Made by a program: the position numbers and the translations under genes. Below, piece after piece: positions 20,440 through 43,160 of a stretch of DNA of 64,000 nucleotides (positions are counted from its first letter, which is position 1; every line of letters starts with the position of its first letter). The stretch covers positions 1-64,000 of the IMG/VR virus record IMGVR_UViG_3300037067_022020; one strand, given 5' to 3'. The notes below the pieces were generated by a model, which did not search any database, was not told where the DNA came from, and saw nothing but the letters and a program-made list of their open reading frames with translations. The DNA is from a virus. Its lineage: Duplodnaviria > Caudoviricetes.

Positions 20440-20525
20440 TTAAAAAATAACATAAAATTTCTGAAACTGTCACGGAAATTTATTATATTTTATTTTAATT
20501 GACAGGAAATTTAAATTTTAAAAAC

Positions 20526-20735
20526 ATGGCAAAACAACCAATCGAATCAGTTGCATTAACTGAATTATTTACAAAAATGAATGAACAGTGGGATCTTTTT
20601 ATGATTAATCACGCTGATCTAGCAAAGGGAAATAAATCCGCTGCAAAGAAAGCCCGTGCTGCTTTAGGAGAAATTAAGAAACTGGTAACTCCATATAGAA
20701 AAGAATCAGTCATAGCAGTCAAAGGCCAAAAGTAA
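20526..20735 (+). CDS. histone H1-like (Hc1-type) small basic protein
   Basis: KGNKSAAKKARAALGEIKKLVTPYRKESV; ATG at 20526. Confidence 0.8.
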   Translation: MAKQPIESVALTELFTKMNEQWDLFMINHADLAKGNKSAAKKARAALGEIKKLVTPYRKESVIAVKGQK

Positions 20736-20870: not shown

Positions 20871-21359
20871 ATGCAAACATCAATTATTAAAAAAACCTAT
20901 CGTTCTGAAACAGCTCATCGAGTGCTAAATGCTGTATCTTCAAGATGTAAATATAATATTCATGGTCACTCATATTTATGGGAAATAAATATTGAAGGAA
21001 CAATTAATCAAGAAACCGGAATGGTGTTGGATTTTAAAGAATTGCAACCAATTAAAGATTTCATTGATAAATTTGATCATGCTATGGTTCTTTGGGAAAA
21101 AGAAGATGATGAAATAAAACAATTTTATCTAAAGCATTATTCTCGAATTATAATCATGAAACAAAATTGTACAGCAGAAAATATGGCTAAGGTAGTTTAT
21201 AAATTCGTCTCCGACTGGTTACAAAAAATTAACAACATAAGATATACTAATTTTTATTGTACTCAAGTCGACGTTTGGGAAACTACTACTGGTTGTGGGG
21301 TTGCTGTTGATTATGATGAAAATGATGTTTTAATTTATTTACATGACGATGATAAATAA
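20871..21359 (+). CDS. queD: 6-carboxytetrahydropterin synthase
   Basis: ETAHR...C...IHGHSY, GMVLDF..L, FDHA, TAENMA, VWET. Confidence 0.93.
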   Translation: MQTSIIKKTYRSETAHRVLNAVSSRCKYNIHGHSYLWEINIEGTINQETGMVLDFKELQPIKDFIDKFDHAMVLWEKEDDEIKQFYLKHYSRIIIMKQNCTAENMAKVVYKFVSDWLQKINNIRYTNFYCTQVDVWETTTGCGVAVDYDENDVLIYLHDDDK

Positions 21360-21406: not shown

Positions 21407-22054
21407 ATGGAGAAAAAAGAAGAATTAATTCAATCAAATGGAAATATTGTACTCTCTGAAAAGCAAAGGGATGAAATGAAACTAAAAGCTGAAATTGCTT
21501 ATGGTCAATTTCTTGATGCCTTACGATTTGATTGGAAGAATGATGTTCAAATGAAAGAAACTCCAATGAGGGTTGCTAAAATGTATGTTGATGAATTATT
21601 TAGGGGCTGCTATACAAACATTCCCGATTTGAAAGAATTTGACAATGAAGGAGGATATGATGGAATGGTATTCAGTGGTGGAATCGATTTATTTTCAACT
21701 TGTGCACATCATTCAGTCGTATTTTTTGGGAAAGCATATATTGGATATCTTCCATCACCCATTGGAAAAGTAGTTGGATTAAGCAAATTAAATAGAATTG
21801 TTGATTTTTACAGCCGAAGGCCAGAAATTCAGGAATCGCTTACGATGCAGATTCATTCTCATCTTAATAAAGTATTAACAGGAAATTTTGGCGTAGCAGT
21901 ATTACTTGAAGCGGCTCATATGTGTGTTCGAAGTAGAGGTGTTAAACAAAATAGTACCATGATCACTAGTAAATTAAGTGGGGGATTTCTCGATCCTGAT
22001 GGGGCTTCAAGAAAAGAATTTTATGATAATATACAATATACAAAAAATCAATAA
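21407..22054 (+). CDS. folE: GTP cyclohydrolase I
   Basis: ETPMRVAKMY, STCAHH, VVGLSKLNRIV....RRP.IQE.LT, H.C...RGV. Confidence 0.96.
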   Translation: MEKKEELIQSNGNIVLSEKQRDEMKLKAEIAYGQFLDALRFDWKNDVQMKETPMRVAKMYVDELFRGCYTNIPDLKEFDNEGGYDGMVFSGGIDLFSTCAHHSVVFFGKAYIGYLPSPIGKVVGLSKLNRIVDFYSRRPEIQESLTMQIHSHLNKVLTGNFGVAVLLEAAHMCVRSRGVKQNSTMITSKLSGGFLDPDGASRKEFYDNIQYTKNQ

Positions 22055-24741
22055 TGTATAAATCAATTTTTTTCGATAAAAAAACTTCTACAATACATTT
22101 ATGGGATGATATTAAAGGATATCATAAATTTCCATTTCAAAAATATGCATATAAAAAAGATTCAACTGGATCTTTTTCTTCTTTATTTGGGCATAAATTA
22201 AAAAAAGTAACTTCTTGGGATAAAACTGACATTGAAGACGAATTAATGTTTGAAAGTGATGTAAATCCAGAAATGAGAACATTAATAGATATGTATCGAG
22301 ACGATGATACCATATCAAAAAATGTCAAAATTATGTTTACTGATATTGAAGTAAATGGAGAAAATGGATATAGTGAAGCAATTAATGCTGAAAATGAAAT
22401 TACAGCTATTTCTATTTATAATAAATTAGACGGGCAAAAACATATTTTTGTAGTTAATCCTTCATCTAATCTAATTTCAATAAAAAGAAATTATAAAATT
22501 CATGAAGTCCAAACTGAAAAGGAGTTACTAAAAAACTTTTTGACTATATATAAAACTATAATTCCTGACATTTTATCTGGGTGGAATAGTAATAATTATG
22601 ATATTCCTTATTTATGTAATAGAATTAAATCCCAAATTGGATCTAAATTTTTGGCAATATTAAGTCCTATTGGAATTGTAGAAAAAGATGATTGGGGGGA
22701 ATATACAATTGCTGGAGTTTCCTTACTTGACTTAATGACACTATATAAACAATTTACATATAATGAAGAACCATCTTATTCATTGGAAGCTATATGTAGA
22801 AAAGAACTTGGTAGAGGAAAAATCGAATATGATGGAAACTTAGATAATTTATATAAATATGATATAAATAAATTTTGTGAATATAATATTGAAGATGTAG
22901 AGTTATTAATAGCATTGGATTTAAAATTAGATCATATTACATTAGCGAGATCTATTTGTCATAAAGGTCATGTTCCATATGAAGATATTTCCTTTGTTAG
23001 CTCATATCTAGATGGGGCATCATTAACTTATTTAAAAAATATAGAAGTAATTGCTCCAAATCGACCAAAAGTAAATAAATTAAAATTTTCAGAAGTTCAA
23101 TTAAAAGGTAGTAAAAAGGTATATATTTCAAATAAAATTCCGTCTGAGACACCAAAATCTGGAGTGTTATTGATTAGAAGATCCAAAACTGCATATATTA
23201 AAGTAGAATATTCAAAATTTTCTGATGATGTTTTTTATTTAATTGATCCATTACCAATTGATTGCTTACCAATTTTTGAAATTTCGGTTAGTTTACCGGG
23301 TGCGTATGTAAAAGATCCTCTTGTTGGATTACATGATTGGGTATTTGATTTAGATTTAACATCATTGTATCCTTCGATTATTATGACGTTAAATATTTCC
23401 CCAGAAACAAAAATTGGATCAGTATTAAATTGGGATGAAAATAAATTTATTAAAAATGAATATGAACAGTTAATCATTCAATCCAAACATCAAAAAACTA
23501 CTTTTTCATTATCTGAATTTAATCAATTTTTAAAAGAGAAAAATTATTCAATATCTTCATCAGGAATAATATATAATTTAAATCATAGAGGATTTATTCC
23601 AACTATTCTCGAAACATGGTTTAATGAAAGAGATGAATTTAAAAATAAAATGAAAAGATATGGCAATGAAAAGAATGAAGAAATGTATAAGTTTTATCAT
23701 TCTCGGCAGCTTACTATGAAAGTTTTATTAAATTCATTTTATGGTGTAATGGCATTAGCTAGATTTCGATTTTATGATCTTGAAAATGCTGTGAGTGTGA
23801 CCTCAACCGGTCAGAGTATTATTAAATTTTCTGGAAAAGTTGCTAACCAATATTATAATAAGCAATTAAATGATAATTTAGATCATGTTATTGCTGTTGA
23901 TACTGACAGTATCTTTTCATCTGCTTTGCCAATTGTTCAAAAAAGATACCCAAAACTAGATTTTGATGACAATGATAAAATGATTCCTAAAGTGTTAGAG
24001 GTTGCTACAGAAGTTCAAAACTATATTAATAAATCTTATGATTTATATGCGTTAAAGTTACATAATTGTAAAGAACACAAATTAAAAATTAAACAAGAAA
24101 ATATATCAAGAACAGGATTATTTATTGCTAAAAAACGATATGCCCTTTGGCAAATATTTGCAGAGGGGGTCTCATCGGATAAATTGGAGGTAAAAGGAAT
24201 TGATGTTGTAAGATCAGATTTTCCTAAAGCATTTAAAATATTTATGTCAGATGTATTAAAAGATTTATTACATAAAATGAATAAAGATGATTATACTAAT
24301 AAATTATGTGATTTCAAAGATTCATTAAATGAAATAGATATAAAAGATATTATGATAACGAAATCAGTAAAAAAACTTTCTGATTATGATCATGAATCCC
24401 GCGAAAAATTTAATTATTTTCTTGGAACACCGGGTCATGTTAAAGCAGCATTATCATATAATGATTTTTTGAATCAAACAAAAAATAAATCTGCAAGACG
24501 TATTTCTAATGGAATGAAAATTAAATTTGCATATTTACGAAAAAATCCATATAATTTAGAGAGTATTGCAATGATGGGATTCGAGGATCCCCCCGATGTT
24601 ATTAAGTTTATTAATGATTATATTGATCGAGATAAAATTTTTGATTCTATATTAGCTAATAAGTTACAATCTTTTTACGATGCGTTAGGTTGGGGGGCAG
24701 TAATTGTTAATAGAGTAGTTGGGACCTTTTTTAATTTTTAA
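22054..24741 (+). CDS. family B DNA polymerase (T4 gp43-like) with ~70-aa insertion
   Basis: Exo DIE, GWNS..YDIPY, YNIEDV; Pol DLTSLYPSII, KVLLNSFYG, DTDS, KKRY. Confidence 0.96.
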   Translation: MYKSIFFDKKTSTIHLWDDIKGYHKFPFQKYAYKKDSTGSFSSLFGHKLKKVTSWDKTDIEDELMFESDVNPEMRTLIDMYRDDDTISKNVKIMFTDIEVNGENGYSEAINAENEITAISIYNKLDGQKHIFVVNPSSNLISIKRNYKIHEVQTEKELLKNFLTIYKTIIPDILSGWNSNNYDIPYLCNRIKSQIGSKFLAILSPIGIVEKDDWGEYTIAGVSLLDLMTLYKQFTYNEEPSYSLEAICRKELGRGKIEYDGNLDNLYKYDINKFCEYNIEDVELLIALDLKLDHITLARSICHKGHVPYEDISFVSSYLDGASLTYLKNIEVIAPNRPKVNKLKFSEVQLKGSKKVYISNKIPSETPKSGVLLIRRSKTAYIKVEYSKFSDDVFYLIDPLPIDCLPIFEISVSLPGAYVKDPLVGLHDWVFDLDLTSLYPSIIMTLNISPETKIGSVLNWDENKFIKNEYEQLIIQSKHQKTTFSLSEFNQFLKEKNYSISSSGIIYNLNHRGFIPTILETWFNERDEFKNKMKRYGNEKNEEMYKFYHSRQLTMKVLLNSFYGVMALARFRFYDLENAVSVTSTGQSIIKFSGKVANQYYNKQLNDNLDHVIAVDTDSIFSSALPIVQKRYPKLDFDDNDKMIPKVLEVATEVQNYINKSYDLYALKLHNCKEHKLKIKQENISRTGLFIAKKRYALWQIFAEGVSSDKLEVKGIDVVRSDFPKAFKIFMSDVLKDLLHKMNKDDYTNKLCDFKDSLNEIDIKDIMITKSVKKLSDYDHESREKFNYFLGTPGHVKAALSYNDFLNQTKNKSARRISNGMKIKFAYLRKNPYNLESIAMMGFEDPPDVIKFINDYIDRDKIFDSILANKLQSFYDALGWGAVIVNRVVGTFFNF

Positions 24742-24804: not shown

Positions 24805-25125
24805 ATGAAAAAATCAGAATTAGTGCAACTTATTAAAGAAGTTATTTCAGAAACTAATAAATATTATCATGTTTTTTGGACAGATGATAATGATGATGAA
24901 ATTCAAGTAATTGATAACAATGCTTTAGTTAAGGCCAATTCAGTTTCAGAAGCAAAAGCTTTAATAAAATCGAAATGTTTTACAGATAAAACATCTATAT
25001 ATAAATTTCAAAATGTTGAAGTGGCAAAACCAGAGGATGAACAATTTGCTGAATATTTTAAGTCTAAAAAAATAATGAATGCTTTAAATTCTAGAGGTTA
25101 TTATATTTATGATTCTGGATCTTAA
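24805..25125 (+). CDS. hypothetical protein with KKSELVQLIKE leader
   Basis: aggag SD; MKKSELVQLIKEVISE. Confidence 0.65.
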   Translation: MKKSELVQLIKEVISETNKYYHVFWTDDNDDEIQVIDNNALVKANSVSEAKALIKSKCFTDKTSIYKFQNVEVAKPEDEQFAEYFKSKKIMNALNSRGYYIYDSGS

Positions 25126-25195
25126 CTTGAAAAAAAAAGAATTAATTAAAATCATTTTTGATTATCTGAATAAAAATTCTTATATTTTAGTTACA

Positions 25196-25302
25196 ATTAA
25201 TCGTTTTTGACCCGATAAACGTTATAAATACTCGGTACTGGAGTCAATTCTGCTACTCAGTAAAACACCGCAGATTAATGTTAAAACATTAATATATTTT
25301 TT
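25196..25302 (+). ncRNA. candidate structured 5' leader of the MIPS operon
   Basis: nested stems attaatc/gattaat, gttt/aaac, cggt/accg, act-g-gagt/actc-agt; competing hairpin attaatgt/acattaat before the ATG. Confidence 0.35.
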
Positions 25303-26448
25303 ATGAATACAAAAATTAAAGTCGCCATTATTGGTGTTGGCAATTGTGCCAAATCTTTGATACAAGGTGTTGATCTTTATAAAAGAGGAAAATTAAATAC
25401 CAATGAAGGTATTATGCGGTCTGATATCGGTGGGTATACACCAAAAGATATTGAATTTGTCTTAGCTTTTGATGTAGATGGAAGAAAAGTTGGAAAGCAT
25501 TTACATGACGCAATTTATGAATTACCAAATTGTGCTATTGATTTAGTTAAACGGGAAGATATGATTCCTATAAAAATTATAGTACAGAAGGCACCAGTTA
25601 TGGATGGTGTTGCACCACATATGCGGACAACCGATATTAATGATCCCGAAAGATTTTATATTGATGATACACAAAAAGAAGTAGATATAATTCAATGTCT
25701 AAAAGACACTGCCCCCGATATTCTTATTAACTATTGTCCAGTTGGTTCTCAACAAGCGGTTGAATTTTATGCACAATGTGCCATCGAAGCAAATGTTGCT
25801 TTTTTAAATTGTATGCCAATTTTTATTGCGTCTGATCCTATTTGGGAGAAAAAGTTTATTGATGCTGGATTACCATTAATTGGGGATGATATGAAATCTC
25901 AATTTGGTGCGAGTATAGTTTCTCAAATTTTGCAAGAATTGGCTTTTTCGAGAGGGCATAAAGTAAAATGTCATATTCAAGAAAATGTCGGAGGAAATAC
26001 CGATTTTCATAATATGAAAGATCAAACTCGGTTAACAACTAAAAAGATTTCAAAAGAAAATGTTATCAGATCACAAAATACAATTAGAGGAATTGATCCA
26101 AAAGATTCATTTTTATATGCGGGGCCATCTAATTATATTCGTTATTATGGTGATAATAAAATCGCGAATTTTCATTTAGAACTTGAAGGATTTGGTGGGT
26201 CTCCAGTTATATTTGATGCAAGAATGTCAGTTCAGGATTCTCCAAATTCTGCAGGCGTTGTTATTGATGCTATTAGATATTTAAAAGTAGCTAAAGAACT
26301 TGGAATAGTTGGAGCATTAAGAGGACCGTCAGCTTGGACTCAAAAATCACCACCATTACAAATGCAGGGAGAACATGCTCAACATGAATGTGATGCATTA
26401 GCTAATAGATGCTTAACCGAAATTACCAGGAATCAATTAAAGAAATAA
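25303..26448 (+). CDS. ino1: myo-inositol-1-phosphate synthase
   Basis: VAIIGVGNCA.SL.QG, IGDD.KSQ.GA, N.GGNTDF.NM, KK.SK, DSPNSAGVVIDA.R. Confidence 0.95.
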   Translation: MNTKIKVAIIGVGNCAKSLIQGVDLYKRGKLNTNEGIMRSDIGGYTPKDIEFVLAFDVDGRKVGKHLHDAIYELPNCAIDLVKREDMIPIKIIVQKAPVMDGVAPHMRTTDINDPERFYIDDTQKEVDIIQCLKDTAPDILINYCPVGSQQAVEFYAQCAIEANVAFLNCMPIFIASDPIWEKKFIDAGLPLIGDDMKSQFGASIVSQILQELAFSRGHKVKCHIQENVGGNTDFHNMKDQTRLTTKKISKENVIRSQNTIRGIDPKDSFLYAGPSNYIRYYGDNKIANFHLELEGFGGSPVIFDARMSVQDSPNSAGVVIDAIRYLKVAKELGIVGALRGPSAWTQKSPPLQMQGEHAQHECDALANRCLTEITRNQLKK

Positions 26449-26451
26449 TAT

Positions 26452-26814
26452 ATGAATGGATTCGATTTTGATGGAGTTATTTCATTAGGAATATACCCAG
26501 GTCCAGAAGATATTATTATTACGGGTAGAAGCTTTGAAGAACAAGCTGAAACAATTAGTTTTATAAGATCGAAAAATATTCAAAACATTATTTATTTTAA
26601 TCCACAGCCATTTTCAAAAAAGTCACGAAAATCAAGTGGAATTTATAAAGCTAAAAAGATCAAAGAACTTGGCATAACTAGATTTTTTGAAGATGACCCA
26701 GTTCAAATAAAAGAAATATTAAAAATTAACCCGGATCTAGAAATAATATATATCAAACATAATTTAGAGCCAAAAGAAAATGTTAGACGAAATTCAAAAA
26801 ACGAAATAGTATGA
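26452..26814 (+). CDS. minimal capless HAD-superfamily phosphatase
   Basis: FDFDGVI (motif I), ITGR (II), K (III), FFEDD (IV). Confidence 0.85.
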   Translation: MNGFDFDGVISLGIYPGPEDIIITGRSFEEQAETISFIRSKNIQNIIYFNPQPFSKKSRKSSGIYKAKKIKELGITRFFEDDPVQIKEILKINPDLEIIYIKHNLEPKENVRRNSKNEIV

Positions 26815-27641
26815 AAAACATAATTATTCTTTATTCAGGTGGTTTAGACAGTTATATTCTTTATCAATATGCAAAAAAGAATTATCCCAATGATAATATT
26901 AAAGCAATTTATTGGAATTATTATCAAGATGTTGCAAAGATAGAAATATCAAAACTTCCAAACTTTGTCGAAATTAGAAATTTAGATTGGATGAATCTAA
27001 AAGGAAAAACATCAATAGAATGCCCCGGAAGAAATGAAGGTCCAATCTTCATCCCTGGTAGAAATTTAGTATTTGCTGTATTATGTGCTTGTGAAGACCT
27101 ACCAGATGAAATTTGGTTGGGGACATTGGCTGGAGAAACACATAACAAAGGAACTGATAAAAATTATCAATTTCTTTGGAATATGAATGCCACATTAAAT
27201 TATGTACTTGGACCATTTTTGGGTGAAAAGAAAATCGAATGTAAATTCCCATTAGCTGATGCTGGAATGAATAAATTAGATTGTGTAAACTGGGCATTAA
27301 ATAATGGAATAACAAAAGAAGAATTAATCTCAACATATTCATGTCATTCTGGAAAAGATATTCCTTGTGGAGAATGTGTACAGTGTATTAAAAGATGGTC
27401 AATTTTTGGCCAAAATGGATTTACAGAAAAATATAATGTTAATCCAGCTACTACAAAACAAGGATTATTAATGTTCGAAGAGATGATAAGATGTAAACTT
27501 GGAGGTGATAACCCATATTATAATCAGGAATCTATACAAGAAATTTTACCATTCTTTATGCAATACGCATTAAAAAATCAGCATCTATTCGATGCTAAAT
27601 TAATTAATAATATAGTCATGGTAAAAAATTTAAAAAATTAA
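26811..27641 (+). CDS. queC: QueC-family ATP pyrophosphatase (7-cyano-7-deazaguanine synthase-like, divergent)
   Basis: YSGGLDS PP-loop, IPGRN, PL....K, SCH....CGECVQC..R zinc site. Confidence 0.85.
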   Translation: MKNIIILYSGGLDSYILYQYAKKNYPNDNIKAIYWNYYQDVAKIEISKLPNFVEIRNLDWMNLKGKTSIECPGRNEGPIFIPGRNLVFAVLCACEDLPDEIWLGTLAGETHNKGTDKNYQFLWNMNATLNYVLGPFLGEKKIECKFPLADAGMNKLDCVNWALNNGITKEELISTYSCHSGKDIPCGECVQCIKRWSIFGQNGFTEKYNVNPATTKQGLLMFEEMIRCKLGGDNPYYNQESIQEILPFFMQYALKNQHLFDAKLINNIVMVKNLKN

Positions 27642-27642
27642 C

Positions 27643-28836
27643 ATGGAAAAAAAATCATTCTTGTATATTCCTTCCTTTTCAGTTGGATATTTTGCGACAT
27701 TATTAGCTAAAAATTATTACTTAACTAACAACTTACCAGCCAGATTTTATGCAGACGATTTCCCCAAATTATTCAGACATAATTCTTTTTTATTAACTGC
27801 CGGGCATTTTTATAAAAAAATGAATACGTTTGACAGTTTTGGATTTGATCGAAAGAAACATTTAGTATTGGGGGATTCCGGGGGATATCAAATTGCATCT
27901 GGTGCTCTAACTTGGTCGAATGATTTAAGATATAAAATTTTTAATTGGTTGGAAAATAATTCGACAGTAGCAATGAATCTAGACATTCCACCCAGAATGA
28001 ATAATATTGGAAAATGGGATGAATGTATAGCTCAAAGCGAAGAAAATTTTAAATATTTTTATGAGAAACAAACAGGAAAAACAGAGTTTCTAAATGTTTT
28101 ACAAGGAACCAATGAAACATCTTATAAGATTTGGTATGATAGAATGAAAAAATTTGAATTTTCTGGGTGGGCAATAGGTGGGGCAGGAGGAATATTATAT
28201 CGTTTAATTAGTTCTATCGCAGTATTATTAGATGGAAAAGAACATTTAAAAACATCTAATAAATACTTACATATGTTAGGATCTTCCAGTTTAAGCGAAT
28301 TTTTTATTCTAGCTCAGCTACAAAAATCATTAAACGATATTGGAAGCAGTTTACAAGTAATGACTGATAGTTCATCCCCATCTTTTTCAGTTGCATTTGG
28401 AACATATTATACCGCAGCTAATTTGAAAAAATGTGTATATTCTACTGTCAATGTCCCAAAACAAAAACAACATTCAATTGACAATAATATGTTTTTACCA
28501 AAGACACATTATTTTGATGCTTTATTTAATAATGTATTAACTCCACAAGATATATTTGACTATAAAGAAAAATGTATTTGTGTAATGACGTTACATAATT
28601 TTTTCGTTCTTAAAGATACAATTACGGCGATTAATGAATTCATTTATAATGATCCATATTTACTACAAGAGGTTACAGACCCGAATCTTTTTATTGTATT
28701 AAAATCAATTGATGAAATGGTAAAAAATGATAATTCAATGAAAGTATTTGAAAAATATAAACCAGCTTATGTTAATGCAAGTAAGTTATTTGATTCATCT
28801 GATGACACTCATATTAATACATTTTTTGAATTTTAG
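27643..28836 (+). CDS. TGT-fold guanine transglycosylase (DpdA-like)
   Basis: GDSGGYQ, MNLDIPP, VLQG, GWAIGG, HMLG, DSSS, LHN. Confidence 0.85.
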   Translation: MEKKSFLYIPSFSVGYFATLLAKNYYLTNNLPARFYADDFPKLFRHNSFLLTAGHFYKKMNTFDSFGFDRKKHLVLGDSGGYQIASGALTWSNDLRYKIFNWLENNSTVAMNLDIPPRMNNIGKWDECIAQSEENFKYFYEKQTGKTEFLNVLQGTNETSYKIWYDRMKKFEFSGWAIGGAGGILYRLISSIAVLLDGKEHLKTSNKYLHMLGSSSLSEFFILAQLQKSLNDIGSSLQVMTDSSSPSFSVAFGTYYTAANLKKCVYSTVNVPKQKQHSIDNNMFLPKTHYFDALFNNVLTPQDIFDYKEKCICVMTLHNFFVLKDTITAINEFIYNDPYLLQEVTDPNLFIVLKSIDEMVKNDNSMKVFEKYKPAYVNASKLFDSSDDTHINTFFEF

Positions 28837-28878
28837 AAAAAAATTTTTTATATTATATACATATTAAATTCACTAAAC

Positions 28879-29589
28879 ATGGATAAAACAAAGTTAACAA
28901 AATTTATTGATAAATATCATCTTGGTGGTAATGTCGAATCTATTAAAATAGAAATAAAAGACAACAGTTTAAAAACAGGATTTTCAACCGAAGATAGAAC
29001 TTTAATTGGAAAAGTAGTTGTTAAAGATTTTAAATTCGAAGATAGTGAATTTGGAATTTTTGCGACATCTGAATTATCAAAAATTTTAGGCGCATTGGAA
29101 TCTGAAATTTCGATGGGGATAAATAAGGTTGATGATAAACCAGTTAATTTAAAAATAGAAGATAGCATTTTAAAAACTATTTTTGTATTAGCCGACCCCG
29201 AAATTATATCTACAAAAGCAGGTTCAATAAAACAACTTCCAGAATTTGATGCTGAATTGAAAATTGATTCGACATTTATTACAACATATTTAAAATCATT
29301 CTCGGCTATTCAAGCTAATAATGTAGCTATTAAAGCAGATAATACTGATGTTACATTTATTATTGGATTTAGTGATATTAATACTAATAGAATTTCATTT
29401 AAATCTCCGGGAACTATCAAAAAAACATTTAGTCCAATTTCATTTAGTTCTGAATATTTTAAACAGATATTAGTAGCTAATAAAGATTGTTCAGCTGGAA
29501 AATTATCTATTAGTCAACAAGGATTATTGAAGTTTCAATTTAAAGAAGGAGATTTTAGTTCAGAATATTTTTTAGTTAAATTAGTTTAA
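28879..29589 (+). CDS. sliding clamp (gp45/PCNA-like)
   Basis: size, EFGIF...L, LADP.II, terminal SEYFLV; directly upstream of the clamp loader. Confidence 0.8.
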   Translation: MDKTKLTKFIDKYHLGGNVESIKIEIKDNSLKTGFSTEDRTLIGKVVVKDFKFEDSEFGIFATSELSKILGALESEISMGINKVDDKPVNLKIEDSILKTIFVLADPEIISTKAGSIKQLPEFDAELKIDSTFITTYLKSFSAIQANNVAIKADNTDVTFIIGFSDINTNRISFKSPGTIKKTFSPISFSSEYFKQILVANKDCSAGKLSISQQGLLKFQFKEGDFSSEYFLVKLV

Positions 29590-31008: not shown

Positions 31009-31791
31009 ATGAACAACAGATTTGAAAAATTAAATTTAAATAAAATTCAGCCAATTGTAGAAGTATGTGTATGTATCCAGGGAGAAGGTCAGAATGCGGG
31101 GATTCCTCATTTTTTGGTTCGCACATCGGGATGTAATTTAAATTGTCAATATTCTAATTCGATTTGTGATACTGCTTATGCATCATGGAATCCAGAAAAA
31201 GGAAGTAAAACTTATCAAGATATTATTGATATAATTAAATTAAATCCACAAATTAATCATGCATTTGTTACTGGTGGTGAACCAACCATTTATAAAGAAC
31301 TGCTTGTTGATATATTAACAATTTTTAAAAATTATAATATTGTAACTGCAATCGAATCAAATGGAAGTATATTCATTCCTGGATTAGAGGATTTATTGGA
31401 TTTAGTAACTATTTCCCCCAAATTAAAAAATTCAGTTCCCAAACTTGGAACATTTGCTAAAAGTAAATGGATAGATAAAATTGTAACTCAAATTGAAATT
31501 GATAAACATGAAAAGAATAGATCTAATTATGATCAAATGAAGTTATGGACTAATTATCATGATGTTCAATTTAAATTTGTTGTTAGTAGTAAATCAGATT
31601 TAGACGAAATAAAACAAATACAAAAGATATTAGATCTTCCACAGCATCTTATATACTTAATGCCTGAAGGAGATTTAAATGATAAACTTCAAGAAAAAAG
31701 AAAAATGGTTATTGAAATATGTATTAAAGAAGGATATAATTATTCTGATCGCCTACATATTTTAACTTATGGTGAAAAACGCGGTGTATAA
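31009..31791 (+). CDS. queE: 7-carboxy-7-deazaguanine synthase (radical SAM)
   Basis: IQGEG..AG.P...VR.SGCNLNC......CDT, TGGEP, ESNG, TISPKL, KFVV, LMPEG, RLH. Confidence 0.93.
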   Translation: MNNRFEKLNLNKIQPIVEVCVCIQGEGQNAGIPHFLVRTSGCNLNCQYSNSICDTAYASWNPEKGSKTYQDIIDIIKLNPQINHAFVTGGEPTIYKELLVDILTIFKNYNIVTAIESNGSIFIPGLEDLLDLVTISPKLKNSVPKLGTFAKSKWIDKIVTQIEIDKHEKNRSNYDQMKLWTNYHDVQFKFVVSSKSDLDEIKQIQKILDLPQHLIYLMPEGDLNDKLQEKRKMVIEICIKEGYNYSDRLHILTYGEKRGV

Positions 31792-32359: not shown

Positions 32360-32533
32360 ATGAAAGAAGATATGCATCAAATAATGGAAAATGTGCGAAT
32401 TGCACTAGAAGATGCTAAAGAATATGGATTAGAAGTAGAAGTTATAACATGGGCGTTAAAATACTTAAAAGAAGATCCAACTATTTCAATTGATCAAGCA
32501 ATTAGTTATGGGTACTATGAATGGATTAAATAA
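32360..32533 (+). CDS. small hypothetical protein, 57 aa (not in ORF track)
   Basis: MKEDMHQIMENVRIALEDAKEYGLEVEVITWALKYLKEDPTISIDQAISYGYYEWIK*; directly after the promoter-like motif. Confidence 0.65.
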   Translation: MKEDMHQIMENVRIALEDAKEYGLEVEVITWALKYLKEDPTISIDQAISYGYYEWIK

Positions 32534-32540
32534 CAAAAAT

Positions 32541-32930
32541 ATGAATAATTTAATCTCTCTCACTGAAGAAAAAATCCTAATCCCTCGACGTACTCCGGAA
32601 GAACGACGGAAAAATTTCATAAAAGCTATCCAACAGAAGATTCAACAATACATCAAAAATGGCAGCAAAGGTGACCTTGATCTCAGCAACACTCCAATAA
32701 CATCACTTCCCGACAATTTAACAAGAGTCGGTGGGAGTCTGGATCTCAACAACACGCCAATAACATCTCTACCAGATAACTTAACAGTCGGCGGATGGTT
32801 GGATCTCTACAACACCAAAATAACATCACTACCAGATAACTTGACAGTCAACGGAGATCTAAGTCTTTACAACACCAAAATAACATCAATCCCAACTTCA
32901 GTAAAAATAAAAGGTAAAATATTAAAATAA
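32541..32930 (+). CDS. leucine-rich-repeat protein
   Basis: four 20-21-aa units of the form LDLxNTxITSLPDNLTVxG; ATG at 32541. Confidence 0.85.
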   Translation: MNNLISLTEEKILIPRRTPEERRKNFIKAIQQKIQQYIKNGSKGDLDLSNTPITSLPDNLTRVGGSLDLNNTPITSLPDNLTVGGWLDLYNTKITSLPDNLTVNGDLSLYNTKITSIPTSVKIKGKILK

Positions 32931-32950: not shown

Positions 32951-33352
32951 ATGAAACAAATCACAAAACCATTAGAAGACAAAATTATTGTAAAAAGAAT
33001 TGAAAATCCTGAAGCAACAGCTAACGGTGTAATTTTACCAGATATTGCCCAAGAAAATGCAGTTATGGGTAAAGTTATTGCAGTTGGTCCTGGTCGTTTA
33101 ACTTTTGATGGGAAAAGAATTCCCAATGAATGTCATGTTGGAGATACAGTTTATTATCTTAAATTTGAAGCATATAAAATTGATGTGGATGGCGAAGAAG
33201 TAACAGTTGTTCGTGAAGCAAATGTTTTAGCTCGAAATTGTAATGACGATGAAGGAAAGTCCACTGATATTGAGAACCAACTAATAAACTTAATGTGTAA
33301 AGAATCTATTGGTGAGGAATCCATTGAGGACCCAATTTATCCAAATATTTAA
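32951..33352 (+). CDS. groES: co-chaperonin GroES with acidic C-terminal extension
   Basis: KPLEDKIIVK, TANGVILPD, GKVIAVGPGR, VGDTV, RE.NVLA. Confidence 0.92.
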   Translation: MKQITKPLEDKIIVKRIENPEATANGVILPDIAQENAVMGKVIAVGPGRLTFDGKRIPNECHVGDTVYYLKFEAYKIDVDGEEVTVVREANVLARNCNDDEGKSTDIENQLINLMCKESIGEESIEDPIYPNI

Positions 33353-33363
33353 TAAATTTTATA

Positions 33364-33795
33364 ATGAAAATCGCGTTTGATTTTGACGGAACGTTGGAGT
33401 TCTTAGAACTTCAAGAACTTGCAAGAGAATTAAAAGAACGAGGGCATGACGTACAAATTGTAACAACTCGTTATGATGAGGAGAATAAATGCAAATATCC
33501 TTTTTATAAAAACATGAAACAAAAACAACGCGATGAATTACATAATGATTTGTATGAGGTTGCAAAAAAATTAAATATTCCATATAATTTTACTAATTAT
33601 GTTCTTAAAGCTCAATTTTTAATCGATAATAATTTTGATATATTAATCGATGACAATTCAGAAGAAGGTGATTTATTAAATTCACTATCCAATAAAATAA
33701 AATTTTATGATTGTTATTATTCATTCGATAAAATGAAAAACGAATTATTAACACTAAATATAACAGATAAAAACAATGAAGAACAAACAAATTAA
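33364..33795 (+). CDS. HAD-superfamily hydrolase
   Basis: IAFDFDGTL, IVTTR, K, LIDDN. Confidence 0.85.
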   Translation: MKIAFDFDGTLEFLELQELARELKERGHDVQIVTTRYDEENKCKYPFYKNMKQKQRDELHNDLYEVAKKLNIPYNFTNYVLKAQFLIDNNFDILIDDNSEEGDLLNSLSNKIKFYDCYYSFDKMKNELLTLNITDKNNEEQTN

Positions 33796-35437
33796 ACTTA
33801 ACACTGAGGCTCGCTCCTCATTACTAAAAGGAATTGAAATCCTTTCAAAATCAGTTGGTATCACATTGGGACCAGCTGGTCGCAATGTAGTAATCGAAAC
33901 AGAATATGAAATGCCATATTCAACTAAAGATGGTGTTACAGTAGCTAAAGCAATTAAATTAAAAGATTCTTTTGAAAATACTGGAGCACAATTAGTAAAA
34001 GAAGCAGCAATCCAAACAAATGATTCTGTTGGCGACGGAACTACAACGGCAGTTATTCTTGCCCATGAAATTATTTCTGAAGGATTAAAGACGCTTACTA
34101 ATGGTGTTAATGCTATAGAATTAAAAAGAGGTATTGAAAAAGCAACAAAGTATGTAGTTTCAGAACTCGAAAAACAAAGTATTAATGTTACTAATAATAA
34201 AGAATTAAATCAAATTGCTACTATTTCAGCTAATGGTGATGAAGAAATTGGAAAAATAATTGCTGAAGCTATGGATGAAGTTGGGAAAGATGGTGTTATA
34301 ATGATCGAAGATGCTAAAACATCTGAAACAATTTTGGAAATTGTTGAAGGCATGCAATTTGATAGGGGATATCTTTCTCCTTATTTTATTAATAATAATC
34401 AAACTATGCAATGTGAATTAGAAAATCCATATATTCTAATTTATGATAGAAAACTCAATAATTTAAAAGGAATAACAAAAGTTTTGGATCAAATTATTAA
34501 AACTGATACTCCACTATTTGTTATTGCAGAAGATGTTGAAGGTGAAGCCTTAGCAGTATTAGTAGTAAATAAAGTTAGGGGAACGATGAAAGTTGCTGCA
34601 ACAAAAGCTCCAGAATTTGGTGATAGAAGAAAAGAAATTCTTGAAGATATTGCTGTATTAACTGGTGGGACTGTTATTTCAGCTGATAAAGGTCTTTCAT
34701 TAGAAAAACTTACTATTGATCAACTTGGACGAGCAAGAATGGTTACTATAACTGGAAAGAAAACAACTATTGTTGATGGCAAAGGAGATGAAAATAAAAT
34801 TCTTGACCGTGCCGAAGAAATTAAGAAACAGATTGAATTAGCTACATCTGATTATGATAAAGAAAAATATCAAGCAAGATTAGCAAGATTTTCTGGCGGA
34901 GTTGCTGTAATTCAAATTGGAGCAGAATCTGAATTAGAAATGAAAGATAAAAAATATAGAGCAGAAGATGCTCTTCATGCAGTCAGAGCCGCAGTTGAAA
35001 AAGGAATTCTTCCTGGTGGTGGTATTGTGTTAATGAATATATTTAATTATTTTGACGATAATAAAGAAATGATTCTTGAATATAATTCAATTCCTAAAAT
35101 TGAAAAAAGAGGTTTTGAAATACTTATGGAAGCAATTAAAGCTCCATTTAGGTTAATAATTGAAAATTCAGGAAAAAATGCTGAAGCTATTTTTGAAACT
35201 ATTAAATTTGAAAGGAAAATGCAAGATAGTCAAAATATTGGATTTGACGCCAAAAGATTAATCATATGTAATCTTATTAAAGAAGGAATTATTGATCCAA
35301 CTAAAGTAACTATTACAGCATTACAAAAAGCAGCAAGTGTAGCAGGAATGATTTTAACCACCGAATCAGTGATTTGTAACGAAGAAGAAAAAGAAAAACA
35401 ATTTATTCCACAGCAATATGAAAATCAGGGGTATTGA
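33776..35437 (+). CDS. groEL: chaperonin GroEL
   Basis: TLGPAGRNV, TKDGVTVA, GDGTTTA, GMQFDRGYLSPYF, GIIDPTKV. Confidence 0.98.
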   Translation: MKNKQIKLNTEARSSLLKGIEILSKSVGITLGPAGRNVVIETEYEMPYSTKDGVTVAKAIKLKDSFENTGAQLVKEAAIQTNDSVGDGTTTAVILAHEIISEGLKTLTNGVNAIELKRGIEKATKYVVSELEKQSINVTNNKELNQIATISANGDEEIGKIIAEAMDEVGKDGVIMIEDAKTSETILEIVEGMQFDRGYLSPYFINNNQTMQCELENPYILIYDRKLNNLKGITKVLDQIIKTDTPLFVIAEDVEGEALAVLVVNKVRGTMKVAATKAPEFGDRRKEILEDIAVLTGGTVISADKGLSLEKLTIDQLGRARMVTITGKKTTIVDGKGDENKILDRAEEIKKQIELATSDYDKEKYQARLARFSGGVAVIQIGAESELEMKDKKYRAEDALHAVRAAVEKGILPGGGIVLMNIFNYFDDNKEMILEYNSIPKIEKRGFEILMEAIKAPFRLIIENSGKNAEAIFETIKFERKMQDSQNIGFDAKRLIICNLIKEGIIDPTKVTITALQKAASVAGMILTTESVICNEEEKEKQFIPQQYENQGY

Positions 35438-37587: not shown

Positions 37588-38016
37588 ATGAAATTTAGAA
37601 TTGGTATAACTGGATCAGACCAATATCCAACTAAAATCAAAATCAAAAATATTATCTTCAATTTAAAAAAACAATTTGGAGATGAATTAGTTATTTATTC
37701 TCGTGGATCATTGAAAGGAGTTGATTTATATGTTAAAAAATTTTCTATAGAATTTGGAATCGATTATGCTGAATTTACTCCCAGTTATCATTCAAAAACA
37801 TTATATTCAGTTAATAAAAATGAATATTATTATAACAAACCATATTCAGGAAGAGATATTTATAAAAGGAGTCTTCAAATGATAAAACAGTGTCATGCTT
37901 TTATATTATTTAAATATGAGGACGATAAAGTTATAGATTATATGATTACCCAAATAACTAAATCAAACAAAAAATTTAAATTAATTGAAAAACATGAAGC
38001 AATTAGAGTTAGGTGA
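37588..38016 (+). CDS. SLOG/YspA-like Rossmannoid protein
   Basis: IGITGS...G...GVD..V...E.G..Y.EF.P. Confidence 0.6.
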   Translation: MKFRIGITGSDQYPTKIKIKNIIFNLKKQFGDELVIYSRGSLKGVDLYVKKFSIEFGIDYAEFTPSYHSKTLYSVNKNEYYYNKPYSGRDIYKRSLQMIKQCHAFILFKYEDDKVIDYMITQITKSNKKFKLIEKHEAIRVR

Positions 38017-42767: not shown

Positions 42768-43160
42768 ATGAAAAAAGTATTTTTGGGCGGAACTTGTAAT
42801 AAAAGTAATTGGAGAGATAAATTAATCCCAATGCTGAAGATAAATTATTTTAATCCAGTAGTAGATAATCGAGATGATGAAGCAGCAAAAATAGAATTAC
42901 AAGAAAGAAAAAATTGTGATTATGTTCTATATGTTATAACTCCCAAAATGACTGGGGTTTATAGCATAGCAGAAGTGGTAGATGATAGTAATAAACAGCC
43001 AGAAAAAACAATTCTTTGTATTCTCGGAAAAGATAGCGAGTTAACCTTTTCCGAAAGTCAACTAAAATCTCTAAAAGCAGTAATAAAAATGGTCACTTTA
43101 AATGGTGCAAAATATTGCAGTTCATTAAAAAATGTTGCAAATTATTTAAATGCAAATTGA
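42768..43160 (+). CDS. nucleoside 2-deoxyribosyltransferase-like protein
   Basis: KVFLGGTC..S.WR, YFNPVV, E, YVITP.M.GVYSIAEVVD. Confidence 0.8.
   Translation: MKKVFLGGTCNKSNWRDKLIPMLKINYFNPVVDNRDDEAAKIELQERKNCDYVLYVITPKMTGVYSIAEVVDDSNKQPEKTILCILGKDSELTFSESQLKSLKAVIKMVTLNGAKYCSSLKNVANYLNAN

Follow-up and report, generated by a model that had tools for sequence, protein, structure and literature searches.

In this work we focused on a QueC-like PP-loop ATPase of 276 amino acids (aa), whose open reading frame (ORF) lies at positions 26811..27641 of a 64,000-nucleotide stretch of viral DNA (Duplodnaviria; Caudoviricetes; positions 1 to 64,000 of the IMG/VR record IMGVR_UViG_3300037067_022020), referred to below as the window. 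The whole record comprises 153,060 bases and is rated 70% complete, and the window has a G+C content of about 27%. The record encodes a T4-type major capsid protein, and its source is a T4-like phage. An earlier note, made from the window's letters alone, had described the protein as a QueC with intact ATP and zinc sites, a remodelled substrate region and a C-terminal extension, and had suggested a changed acceptor. We found that the protein, judged by its sequence, belongs to a phage-only and so far uncharacterised clade of QueC proteins in which the pocket is rebuilt. Its steady pairing with two inositol genes suggests that it may help to build an undescribed modified DNA base.

Gene content of the locus

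All genes of the locus, including that of the QueC-like protein, lie on the plus strand. Upstream are found the genes for QueD (PTPS; 20871..21359, PF01242 with 72.7 bits), FolE (GTP cyclohydrolase I; 21407..22054, PF01227 with 157 bits) and a family-B DNA polymerase (22054-24741). They are followed by an inositol-3-phosphate synthase (MIPS; 25303..26448, PF01658) and a minimal HAD-type phosphatase of 120 aa (26452..26814), the 3' end of which overlaps the start of the QueC-like gene. Downstream lie a DpdA-like transglycosylase with the tRNA-guanine transglycosylase (TGT) fold (27643..28836), the clamp and clamp loader genes (from 28879 and from 29591) and a QueE-like radical SAM enzyme (31009..31791; PF04055, Fer4_12), which matches the QueE genes of related loci. 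The phage 7-deazaguanine DNA-modification gene set (FolE, QueD, QueE, QueC-type and DpdA-like) is thus complete in one phage, and FolE, QueD and QueE always accompany the QueC-like gene in related loci. A PADLOC scan returned the generic QueC model and a weak DpdA match, and the 153-kb record contains no QueC-family gene besides the QueC-like one.

The synthase matches Mycobacterium tuberculosis Ino1 (1gr0) over its full length with 313 bits, versus 164 bits for the five-membered-cyclitol synthase 6k96. In the small phosphatase, which has a weak match to phrog_415, the four HAD motifs (DxDGV, TGRS, K66 and D81-D82) are invariant in 17/17 homologues, those of Caulobacter phage Cr30 and Ralstonia phage RP13 among them. 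When window positions 25000-29000 were compared with phage records by blastn, the Cr30 inositol synthase was the sole match. The motifs DSGGxQ, LDIP, HxLG and DS of the DpdA-like protein are invariant in 21 sequences, and its model (pLDDT 85.4) gave Foldseek matches to TGT chains with E about 1e-9 and TM 0.5-0.58.

Five Pfam scans of the window's record revealed no aminotransferase, inositol dehydrogenase, phosphoribosyltransferase, 5-hydroxymethyldeoxyuridine (5-hmdU) kinase or amino-acid:DNA transferase (ADDT); phosphoribosyltransferase-like genes are present in some related loci. A QueF-type gene was found in none of 47 clade records, made up of the window's and 46 related ones; the control phages HVTV-1 and immuto gave positive results. 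The sub-threshold matches of this search, and one at 27.9 bits, fall on FolE ORFs.

Motifs and predicted structure of the QueC-like protein

The protein matches the Pfam QueC family PF06508 with 54.4 bits, well above the gathering cut-off of 22, and thus belongs to the QueC superfamily. Its scores for the NCBIfam QueC equivalog TIGR00364 (55.1 bits versus a cut-off of 150.3) and for NF008317 (23.5 versus 378) place it outside canonical QueC. A search of the PDB sequences with phmmer and the single sequence gave no match; an alignment profile was required.

Consistent with the earlier note, the ATP pyrophosphatase motif SGGLDS (PP-loop; residues 9-14, 26835..26852), the motif PGRN (residues 82-85, 27054..27065) and the zinc-binding cysteines (C178-x7-C186-x2-C189-x2-C192, 27342..27386) are intact. 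The PP-loop is invariant in 38/38 family members and in every row of the alignment by which the groups were compared. PGRN, which reads IPGRN at residues 81-85, aligns with the canonical VPxRN, and its R84 and N85 are invariant in all groups; a second PGRN at residues 71-74 is unaligned. The zinc site, placed by alignments, and the VPxRN counterpart are those of a canonical QueC.

Two other motifs deviate, as the same note had observed, and the alignment with 12 reference QueCs confirmed both changes. The canonical YxQxHxxE (YGQRHR-AE in E. coli) corresponds to YYQDVAKIE (residues 37-45, 26919..26945), in which Y37, the Gln and E45 are kept, the His is gone and the distance from Gln to Glu is one residue longer. 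The sequence YYQD is peculiar to the window protein, the family consensus at that place being (H/I)GQ. The canonical stretch E-T-D-F-S-G-YPDCR-x-x-F is replaced by GETHNKGTDKNYQF (residues 108-121, 27132..27173; HMM alignment to 2pg3 and 3bl5), E. coli ETDFSG-YPDCRDEF being aligned with GETHN-KGTDKNYQF of the window protein. Neither the aromatic residue of YPDC nor the Tyr after the first zinc Cys is present: the window protein reads G114-T-D-K at the first place and has H179 at the position of E. coli Y189. The family has G/A/S at the place of E. coli Y131 and W/H/L at that of Y189. The Asp of YPDC, E45, R84/N85 and K155 (the K165 equivalent) are kept. In E. coli QueC, the mutants Y35A, R99A, Y131A and Y189A lose queuosine formation (PMC13329287; here and below, statements on published work refer to the accessible parts of the sources). 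Of their equivalents in the window protein, Y37 and R84 are kept, and G114 and H179 are changed. Throughout the 38 homologues the PP-loop, E45, R84, N85, E109, T115, D116, K117, F121, K155 and the four Cys are invariant, which argues that both the kept and the rebuilt features are under selection rather than due to chance.

The extension that the earlier note had put at about 75 residues beyond the zinc site is real: 84 residues follow the last zinc Cys, compared with 19-43 in the 12 references, and tails of 56-90 residues recur across the family. An AlphaFold2 model based on 38 homologues (pLDDT 93.7, pTM 0.90) shows three helices at high pLDDT in this region (residues 216-229, 239-255 and 262-275), and the extension (residues 205-276, 27423..27638) has no counterpart in solved QueC or Cap9. 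The top structural match was QueC 3bl5 (Z 15.3, root-mean-square deviation (rmsd) 3.0, 181 residues aligned), equalled by Cap9 9nto_B (Z 15.3, rmsd 2.5, 172 residues aligned) and followed by QueC 2pg3 (Z 14.5). All three alignments stop at model residue 200-204. QatC was absent among the 50 structural matches listed. A fold and family search of the ESM Atlas with the tail gave nothing above noise. A DNA-binding domain was considered for the tail and rejected: in most relatives it carries a neutral to acidic net charge and thus shows no sign of DNA binding. As far as sequence comparison tells, the protein retains the machinery for ATP adenylation, has rebuilt residues around its pocket for substrate and nucleophile, and has gained a predicted helical C-terminal domain.

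Phylogenetic position

A word-index search returned 162 homologues of the QueC-like protein, the best 120 of which measure 214-295 aa. A profile search of 1.84 billion representatives yielded 106 proteins at E ≤ 1e-30 and 1360 at E ≤ 1e-10. For tree building, 79 viral loci (designated by L and a number) were fetched and 12 references added: QueC of E. coli and of the phages CAjan, phi3:1, KVP40, HVTV-1, Rosebush, immuto 13-6C, MS1 and Youna2, QueC* of CP220 and WX1, and Gat-QueC of 9g. Eight duplicates (L012, L018, L019, L036, L049, L052, L074, L080), six truncated sequences (L017, L041, L050, L066, L070, L079), L023 (PP-loop missed by the pattern) and L071 (no QueC match) were dropped before a 77-row tree was built. 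For a 73-row tree, seven rows were dropped, namely L055, L063, L065, L073, L075 and L077 (long branch) and WX1 (near-duplicate of CP220). The related QueC loci were fetched by the pattern LYSGGLDS, which biases the non-family viral rows. Both trees are quick searches with SH-aLRT support only, contain some rows on long branches and hold no RoyL, QatC or Cap9 sequences.

In the 77-row tree, 61 viral rows form one clade (SH-aLRT 99, stem 0.98) without any of the 12 references, and the window protein falls within a 36-row family (support 95) inside it. The phylogeny with canonical QueC and Gat-QueC that the earlier note had proposed therefore separates the window protein from canonical phage QueC and puts it in a viral clade of its own. 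All 12 references carry (Y/F/W)PD(C/N) and short tails. The Cys of YPDC occurs in no row of the viral clade, and the 36-row family reads TDKN. From these alignments, the rebuilt motifs and the tail are marks of a phage-only QueC clade and not private to the window protein.

The QueC-like gene is the sole QueC-family gene in 24 of the 26 family records searched, three of which are rated 100% complete; of the remaining two, one has no match at all and G017 has an extra, weak 22-bit match in another ORF. Among 20 non-family records of the clade, five also carry a Gat-QueC-like gene, adjacent to the QueC-like one. Four such genes, with an MCGI start and 449-539 aa (L043:4889-6508, L045:3473-5050, L047:4091-5668, L048:7886-9235), lie near a short QueC-like gene from this viral clade; each of these phages therefore has two QueC paralogues. 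In one of the references, the QueC of Flavobacterium phage immuto 13-6C (L091:5983-6864, 293 aa), all four zinc Cys are absent from the alignment and YPDCR is kept.

Association of the inositol genes with QueC-like enzymes

In 21 of the 22 rows of the window's subclade, the QueC-like gene is preceded, at most 2.5 kb upstream, by an inositol synthase gene, and such a gene is found beside QueC in 0 of 14 sister-subclade rows and 0 of 37 other (non-family) QueC loci. Taken alone, this pattern could be a single evolutionary event. An alignment-based scan detected 535 viral stretches encoding the synthase; the counts given below refer to the best 83 of these, and a long subset to 40 loci of at least 12 kb. 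The small phosphatase is present in 70 of the 83 synthase loci, and a QueC-type gene in five. One of the five (L120) belongs to the family and shares its contig with L030, and two (L164, L165) belong to a lineage different from the family. The other two (L116:3600-4766, L121:9685-10887) are single ORFs of 389 or 401 aa that join an HAD-type domain (DxDGT) to a QueC-like domain and lie between the inositol synthase and a DpdA-like gene. The fusion ORF directly follows the synthase, and these loci have no separate small phosphatase. The QueC-like domains score 56.5 and 54.6 bits with PF06508, and the HAD part gives only sub-threshold Pfam HAD matches.

In the 73-row tree, L116, L121 and L164 fall inside the 61-row clade (support 99) and outside the 36-row family (support 99), and the inositol label requires 3 changes. 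Forcing all 25 inositol-linked rows into one clade costs 44.8 log-likelihood units (p = 0.027 in the approximately unbiased test), for a group that was defined after the tree had been seen and that involves long branches. The inositol pair thus adjoins at least three lineages of the QueC clade. The operon link assumed in the earlier note holds in so far as the pairing recurs and appears as a fusion in two contigs. The pair mostly stands without QueC, in 78 of the 83 loci.

Relatives with and without inositol genes have no residue in common at four alignment columns, two of which are positions 37 and 179, equivalent to E. coli Y35 and Y189. Column 37 holds H/Y in the presence of inositol genes and I in their absence, and column 179 W/H/F/Y and L, respectively, a contrast that rests essentially on one split in the tree.

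Inositol genes in other phages

Among the 83 loci, 56 contain a 5-hmdU-kinase-type gene, 54 an FkbM methyltransferase gene and three an ADDT gene. The 40 long loci comprise 32 with a 5-hmdU-kinase-type gene, two with ADDT, three with a QueC-like gene and three with none of these. The pair of Cr30 adjoins an ADDT gene, and that of RP13 is flanked on either side by a 5-hmdU DNA kinase gene. In five further representative loci the pair is surrounded by genes for thymidylate-synthase-like proteins, dUTPase, 5-hmdU kinase, Tet/JBP, ADDT, methyltransferases and DNA methylases. In its gene neighbourhoods the inositol pair thus behaves like an accessory to systems of DNA hypermodification. Pfam scans detected the 5-hmdU-kinase-type and ADDT partner genes neither in the QueC loci nor in the window's genome, which leaves the deazaguanine genes as the sole modification machinery next to the pair in that genome.

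An unknown protein of about 350 aa is encoded directly upstream of the synthase in 68 of the 83 loci (for example L145:6900-7949, L123:6908-7984, L153:6818-7888 and L159:6859-7959). Together with the kinase, FkbM and the inositol pair it looks like a candidate system for an inositol-bearing thymidine hypermodification.

Comparison with known QueC-type enzymes

Canonical QueC (E. coli, B. subtilis 3bl5, phage CAjan) shares with the window protein the PF06508 fold, SGGxDS, RN, K155, the zinc site, the Asp of YPDC and the setting among FolE, QueD and QueE. The window protein differs by (G/A)TDKN in place of YPDC, by H179 in place of Y189 and by a helical C-terminal addition of 72-84 residues. The QueC* of Campylobacter phage CP220, proposed to be a 7-amido-7-deazaguanine (ADG) synthase that stops short of preQ0 (Hutinet 2023, PMC10516641), has the same extra residue before the conserved Glu, but it keeps FPDCR, has a 19-residue tail and groups with the reference QueCs. 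Gat-QueC was ruled out as an identity: the PP-loop of the window protein starts at residue 9, leaving no N-terminal class-II glutamine amidotransferase domain.

The closest mechanistic analogues of the reaction proposed below, as far as they are described, are the RoyL-type deazapurine amide-bond synthetases, QueC homologues that adenylate 7-carboxy-7-deazaguanine (CDG) and use a nucleophile other than ammonia (10.64898/2026.04.15.718813). By the same description they are set apart as actinobacterial enzymes of secondary metabolism that use amino acids. The RoyL nucleophile is in contact with Tyr, His and Glu, all from the motif that the window protein has in remodelled form (10.64898/2026.04.15.718813).

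In Cap9 and QatC the QueC scaffold has been repurposed for a new acceptor (PMC13329287), and the earlier note had likened the window protein to these defence-type members. The likeness holds for the core fold of Cap9 (Z 15.3) and for the spacing YxQ(x)5E, which is the Cap9 variant according to PMC13329287. It does not extend to identity with either protein, which was ruled out by length, motifs, the lack of a PADLOC match and the lack of partner genes. Cap9 has about 185 aa, keeps H(x)4YxDCxxxF and is encoded beside a CD-NTase, in contrast to the 276 aa and TDKN of the window protein. QatC has about 400 aa, N- and C-terminal extensions, motifs of its own and QatA, QatB and QatD as neighbours. 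The PADLOC QatC models gave no match at E up to 1, and genome scans found no CD-NTase, QatA, QatB or QatD (KAP NTPase, TatD), either in the window or elsewhere in the record. The family profile matched Cap9 with 23 bits and QatC with 19 bits, both partially and for QatC (9vlk) over the zinc region alone, compared with 36 and 35 bits for canonical QueC.

The nearest homologues in named phages are the Menderavirus 'QueC' proteins of the Stenotrophomonas phages IME-SM1, Moby and Ps15, with 43% identity. Their cassette is the same as in the window (FolE, inositol synthase, small protein, QueC-like, TGT and QueE), in another phage of another host. In the accessible text of the Ps15 paper the inositol synthase is seen as an unrelated bacterial-like gene (PMC9025141). 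No report on the DNA chemistry of Menderavirus phages, and no paper describing an inositol-linked DNA base, was found in the literature searched.

Proposed reaction and alternative explanations

We propose, with a probability of roughly 0.4, that CDG is adenylated by the enzyme and joined to inositol, for the supply of which the two upstream genes would be responsible. In this scheme FolE, QueD and QueE would make CDG, the 7-carboxyl group of which would be adenylated by the QueC-like enzyme and then coupled to myo-inositol instead of to ammonia alone. The myo-inositol would be provided by the synthase and then the HAD phosphatase encoded directly upstream. The TGT-fold enzyme encoded directly downstream would place the deazaguanine in phage DNA, ligation taking place before or after insertion, and the product would be an ester. 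What leads us to this proposal is the loss of residues essential in E. coli QueC, the position in the clade, the gene order, the recurrence of the pairing in independent lineages, the fusion and the company that the pair keeps in other hypermodification systems, together with pocket columns 37 and 179 and the precedent of QueC homologues with other nucleophiles (RoyL, Cap9, QatC).

Should inositol coupling occur, it would add a ninth, much bulkier 7-deazaguanine DNA base to the eight derivatives known in phage DNA, none of which carries a cyclitol in the accessible text of Hutinet 2023. It would also provide the first oxygen nucleophile for a QueC-type enzyme and a role for the inositol-making gene pair of 535 viral contig stretches. 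Were the enzyme just an ADG or preQ0 synthase, it would still show that residues reported to be essential for E. coli QueC are replaceable. The question is directly testable, as cultured carriers exist in the Stenotrophomonas Menderavirus phages.

Several observations weigh against inositol coupling. The inositol pair does not need QueC, since it mostly occurs without it, as in the 78 of 83 loci mentioned above and in Cr30 and RP13, which have synthase and phosphatase and no QueC-family gene genome-wide; the RP13 synthase even nests (support 100) among the QueC-linked synthases. Rows without inositol genes, namely the 14 of the sister subclade and 20-odd others of viral origin, also have the rebuilt motif and the tail, so that TDKN and the tail alone give no indication of an inositol acceptor. 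The DpdA-like proteins are not split according to the presence of inositol genes: that of the window is 49% and 45% identical to two from phages without the pair, and 43% and 39% to two from phages with it. Many loci come from related phages, so that locus counts do not represent independent events. In RP13, Tad6-like (anti-Thoeris) and Acb1-like (anti-CBASS) genes lie at most 2 kb from the inositol pair (L094:8311-9230), and the adjacency might therefore reflect a general anti-defence island. In supplementary file 7 of Hutinet 2019, the Menderavirus (IME-SM1) homologue appears under the name QueC, and the gene beside it under DpdA2.

There are chemical objections as well. An ester-linked base would be labile, and a hydroxyl nucleophile is, to our knowledge, unprecedented for PP-loop enzymes of the QueC family.

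Some of these points are shared by an ordinary pathway step, which is also quite possible, at clearly less than even odds: CDG would be adenylated and ammonia used, giving ADG and perhaps preQ0 for insertion into DNA by the DpdA-like enzyme, the motifs and the tail being lineage drift and the inositol pair serving a separate function or acting later through another enzyme. It would suit the only QueC-family gene of the record, and of 24 of 26 family records, always accompanied by FolE, QueD and QueE. It would likewise suit the kept Asp of YPDC, E45, R84/N85 and K155, the same motif type in relatives without inositol genes, the likeness of DpdA-like proteins in phages with and without the pair, and the Menderavirus listing as QueC beside DpdA2 (Hutinet 2019, supplementary file 7). 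Such a step fits poorly with a score of 55 bits against an equivalog cut-off of 150, with the lack of the YPDC aromatic residue and of the Tyr after the first zinc Cys, both needed by E. coli QueC, and with the HAD::QueC-like fusion, which it leaves unexplained. The absence of a QueF-type gene from the 47 clade records also speaks against it, as nothing downstream there requires a nitrile. The Gat-QueC-like gene present in five of 20 other clade records is a further difficulty: the 9g Gat-QueC can make preQ0 by itself (PMC6884629), so that the clade may do something else. The archaeal pairing of QueC with Gat-QueC allows the opposite reading of this co-occurrence.

A changed acceptor, as suggested in the earlier note, agrees with a clade that lacks E. 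coli Y131 and Y189, and less well with the occurrence of the rebuilt motif and tail in relatives without the inositol genes. It could also mean a ligase for a non-ammonia acceptor other than inositol, either an amine or amino acid, as for RoyL, or a protein N-terminus, as for Cap9 and QatC, with the C-terminal domain holding the acceptor or a partner protein. We consider this unlikely. The Cap9-type spacing YxQ(x)5E (PMC13329287), the equal structural match of Cap9 to the model (Z 15.3), the remodelling of the motif contacted by the RoyL nucleophile and the TGT-like gene directly downstream, as Cap10 accompanies Cap9 (10.1101/2025.04.06.647259), are in its favour. It is opposed by the lack of CD-NTase, QatA, QatB and QatD homologues in the window and the rest of the record, by PADLOC QatC models without a match at E up to 1 and a profile that only partly matches Cap9 (23 bits) and QatC (19 bits), and by the lack of a conserved neighbour gene that would supply an amine. 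A non-catalytic or regulatory protein that binds CDG or ATP without turnover would agree with the loss of residues essential in E. coli QueC, but is very improbable given that the PP-loop, R84/N85, K155, D116 and the four Cys are invariant in 38 to 60 diverged sequences, as fits a working active site.

Returning to inositol coupling, a broader model can be proposed tentatively, as one that may well not hold. The clade would consist of CDG-adenylating ligases, the nucleophile of which is set by a plug-in supply module, and the inositol pair would be a portable donor of one such nucleophile to three DNA-activating chemistries that are unrelated to each other, namely 5-hmdU pyrophosphorylation, ADDT and QueC-type adenylation. 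Its product in the window's phage would be an inositol ester of CDG in DNA, a base class not yet described.

Other genes of the phage genome

Just upstream of QueD, a chlamydial-type histone H1-like protein Hc1 is encoded at 20499-20735 (PF07432, 37 bits). Downstream of the deazaguanine genes, positions 32951-35437 encode GroES and GroEL, the latter also being found near the inositol pair in L153. Within this region a second small protein of 143 aa (33364-33795) starts with an HAD-type motif, DxDGT; on visual inspection it looks similar to the N-terminal domain of the HAD::QueC fusions, and its Pfam matches are weak and unrelated. A protein of 146 aa (32490-32930) contains a repeated 'NTPITSLPDNLT' unit akin to leucine-rich repeats, and several leucine-rich repeat proteins are encoded elsewhere in the record.

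From position 37985 to 63599 of the window, and on to about 78,500 of the record (L107:1-14545), extends an island of sugar-chemistry genes of about 40 kb. It includes at least eight glycosyltransferase-domain genes, several methyltransferases (FkbM, C-methyl), three epimerase/dehydratases, a radical SAM-SPASM enzyme, split transketolase halves, an acetyltransferase and an IMPDH/GMP-reductase-like gene. A nucleoside 2-deoxyribosyltransferase-like gene (PF15891, 42 bits) lies inside this island at 42768-43160.

Further regions of the record (L109:2700-5443, L110:4221-5480, L110:10961-11584, L108:2029-6993) encode two proteins with type-IX-secretion sorting domains, a TnpB/Cas12f-like protein, a resolvase on the opposite strand and a collagen-repeat protein of 1654 aa. 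The type-IX-secretion sorting domains suggest a host belonging to the Bacteroidota.

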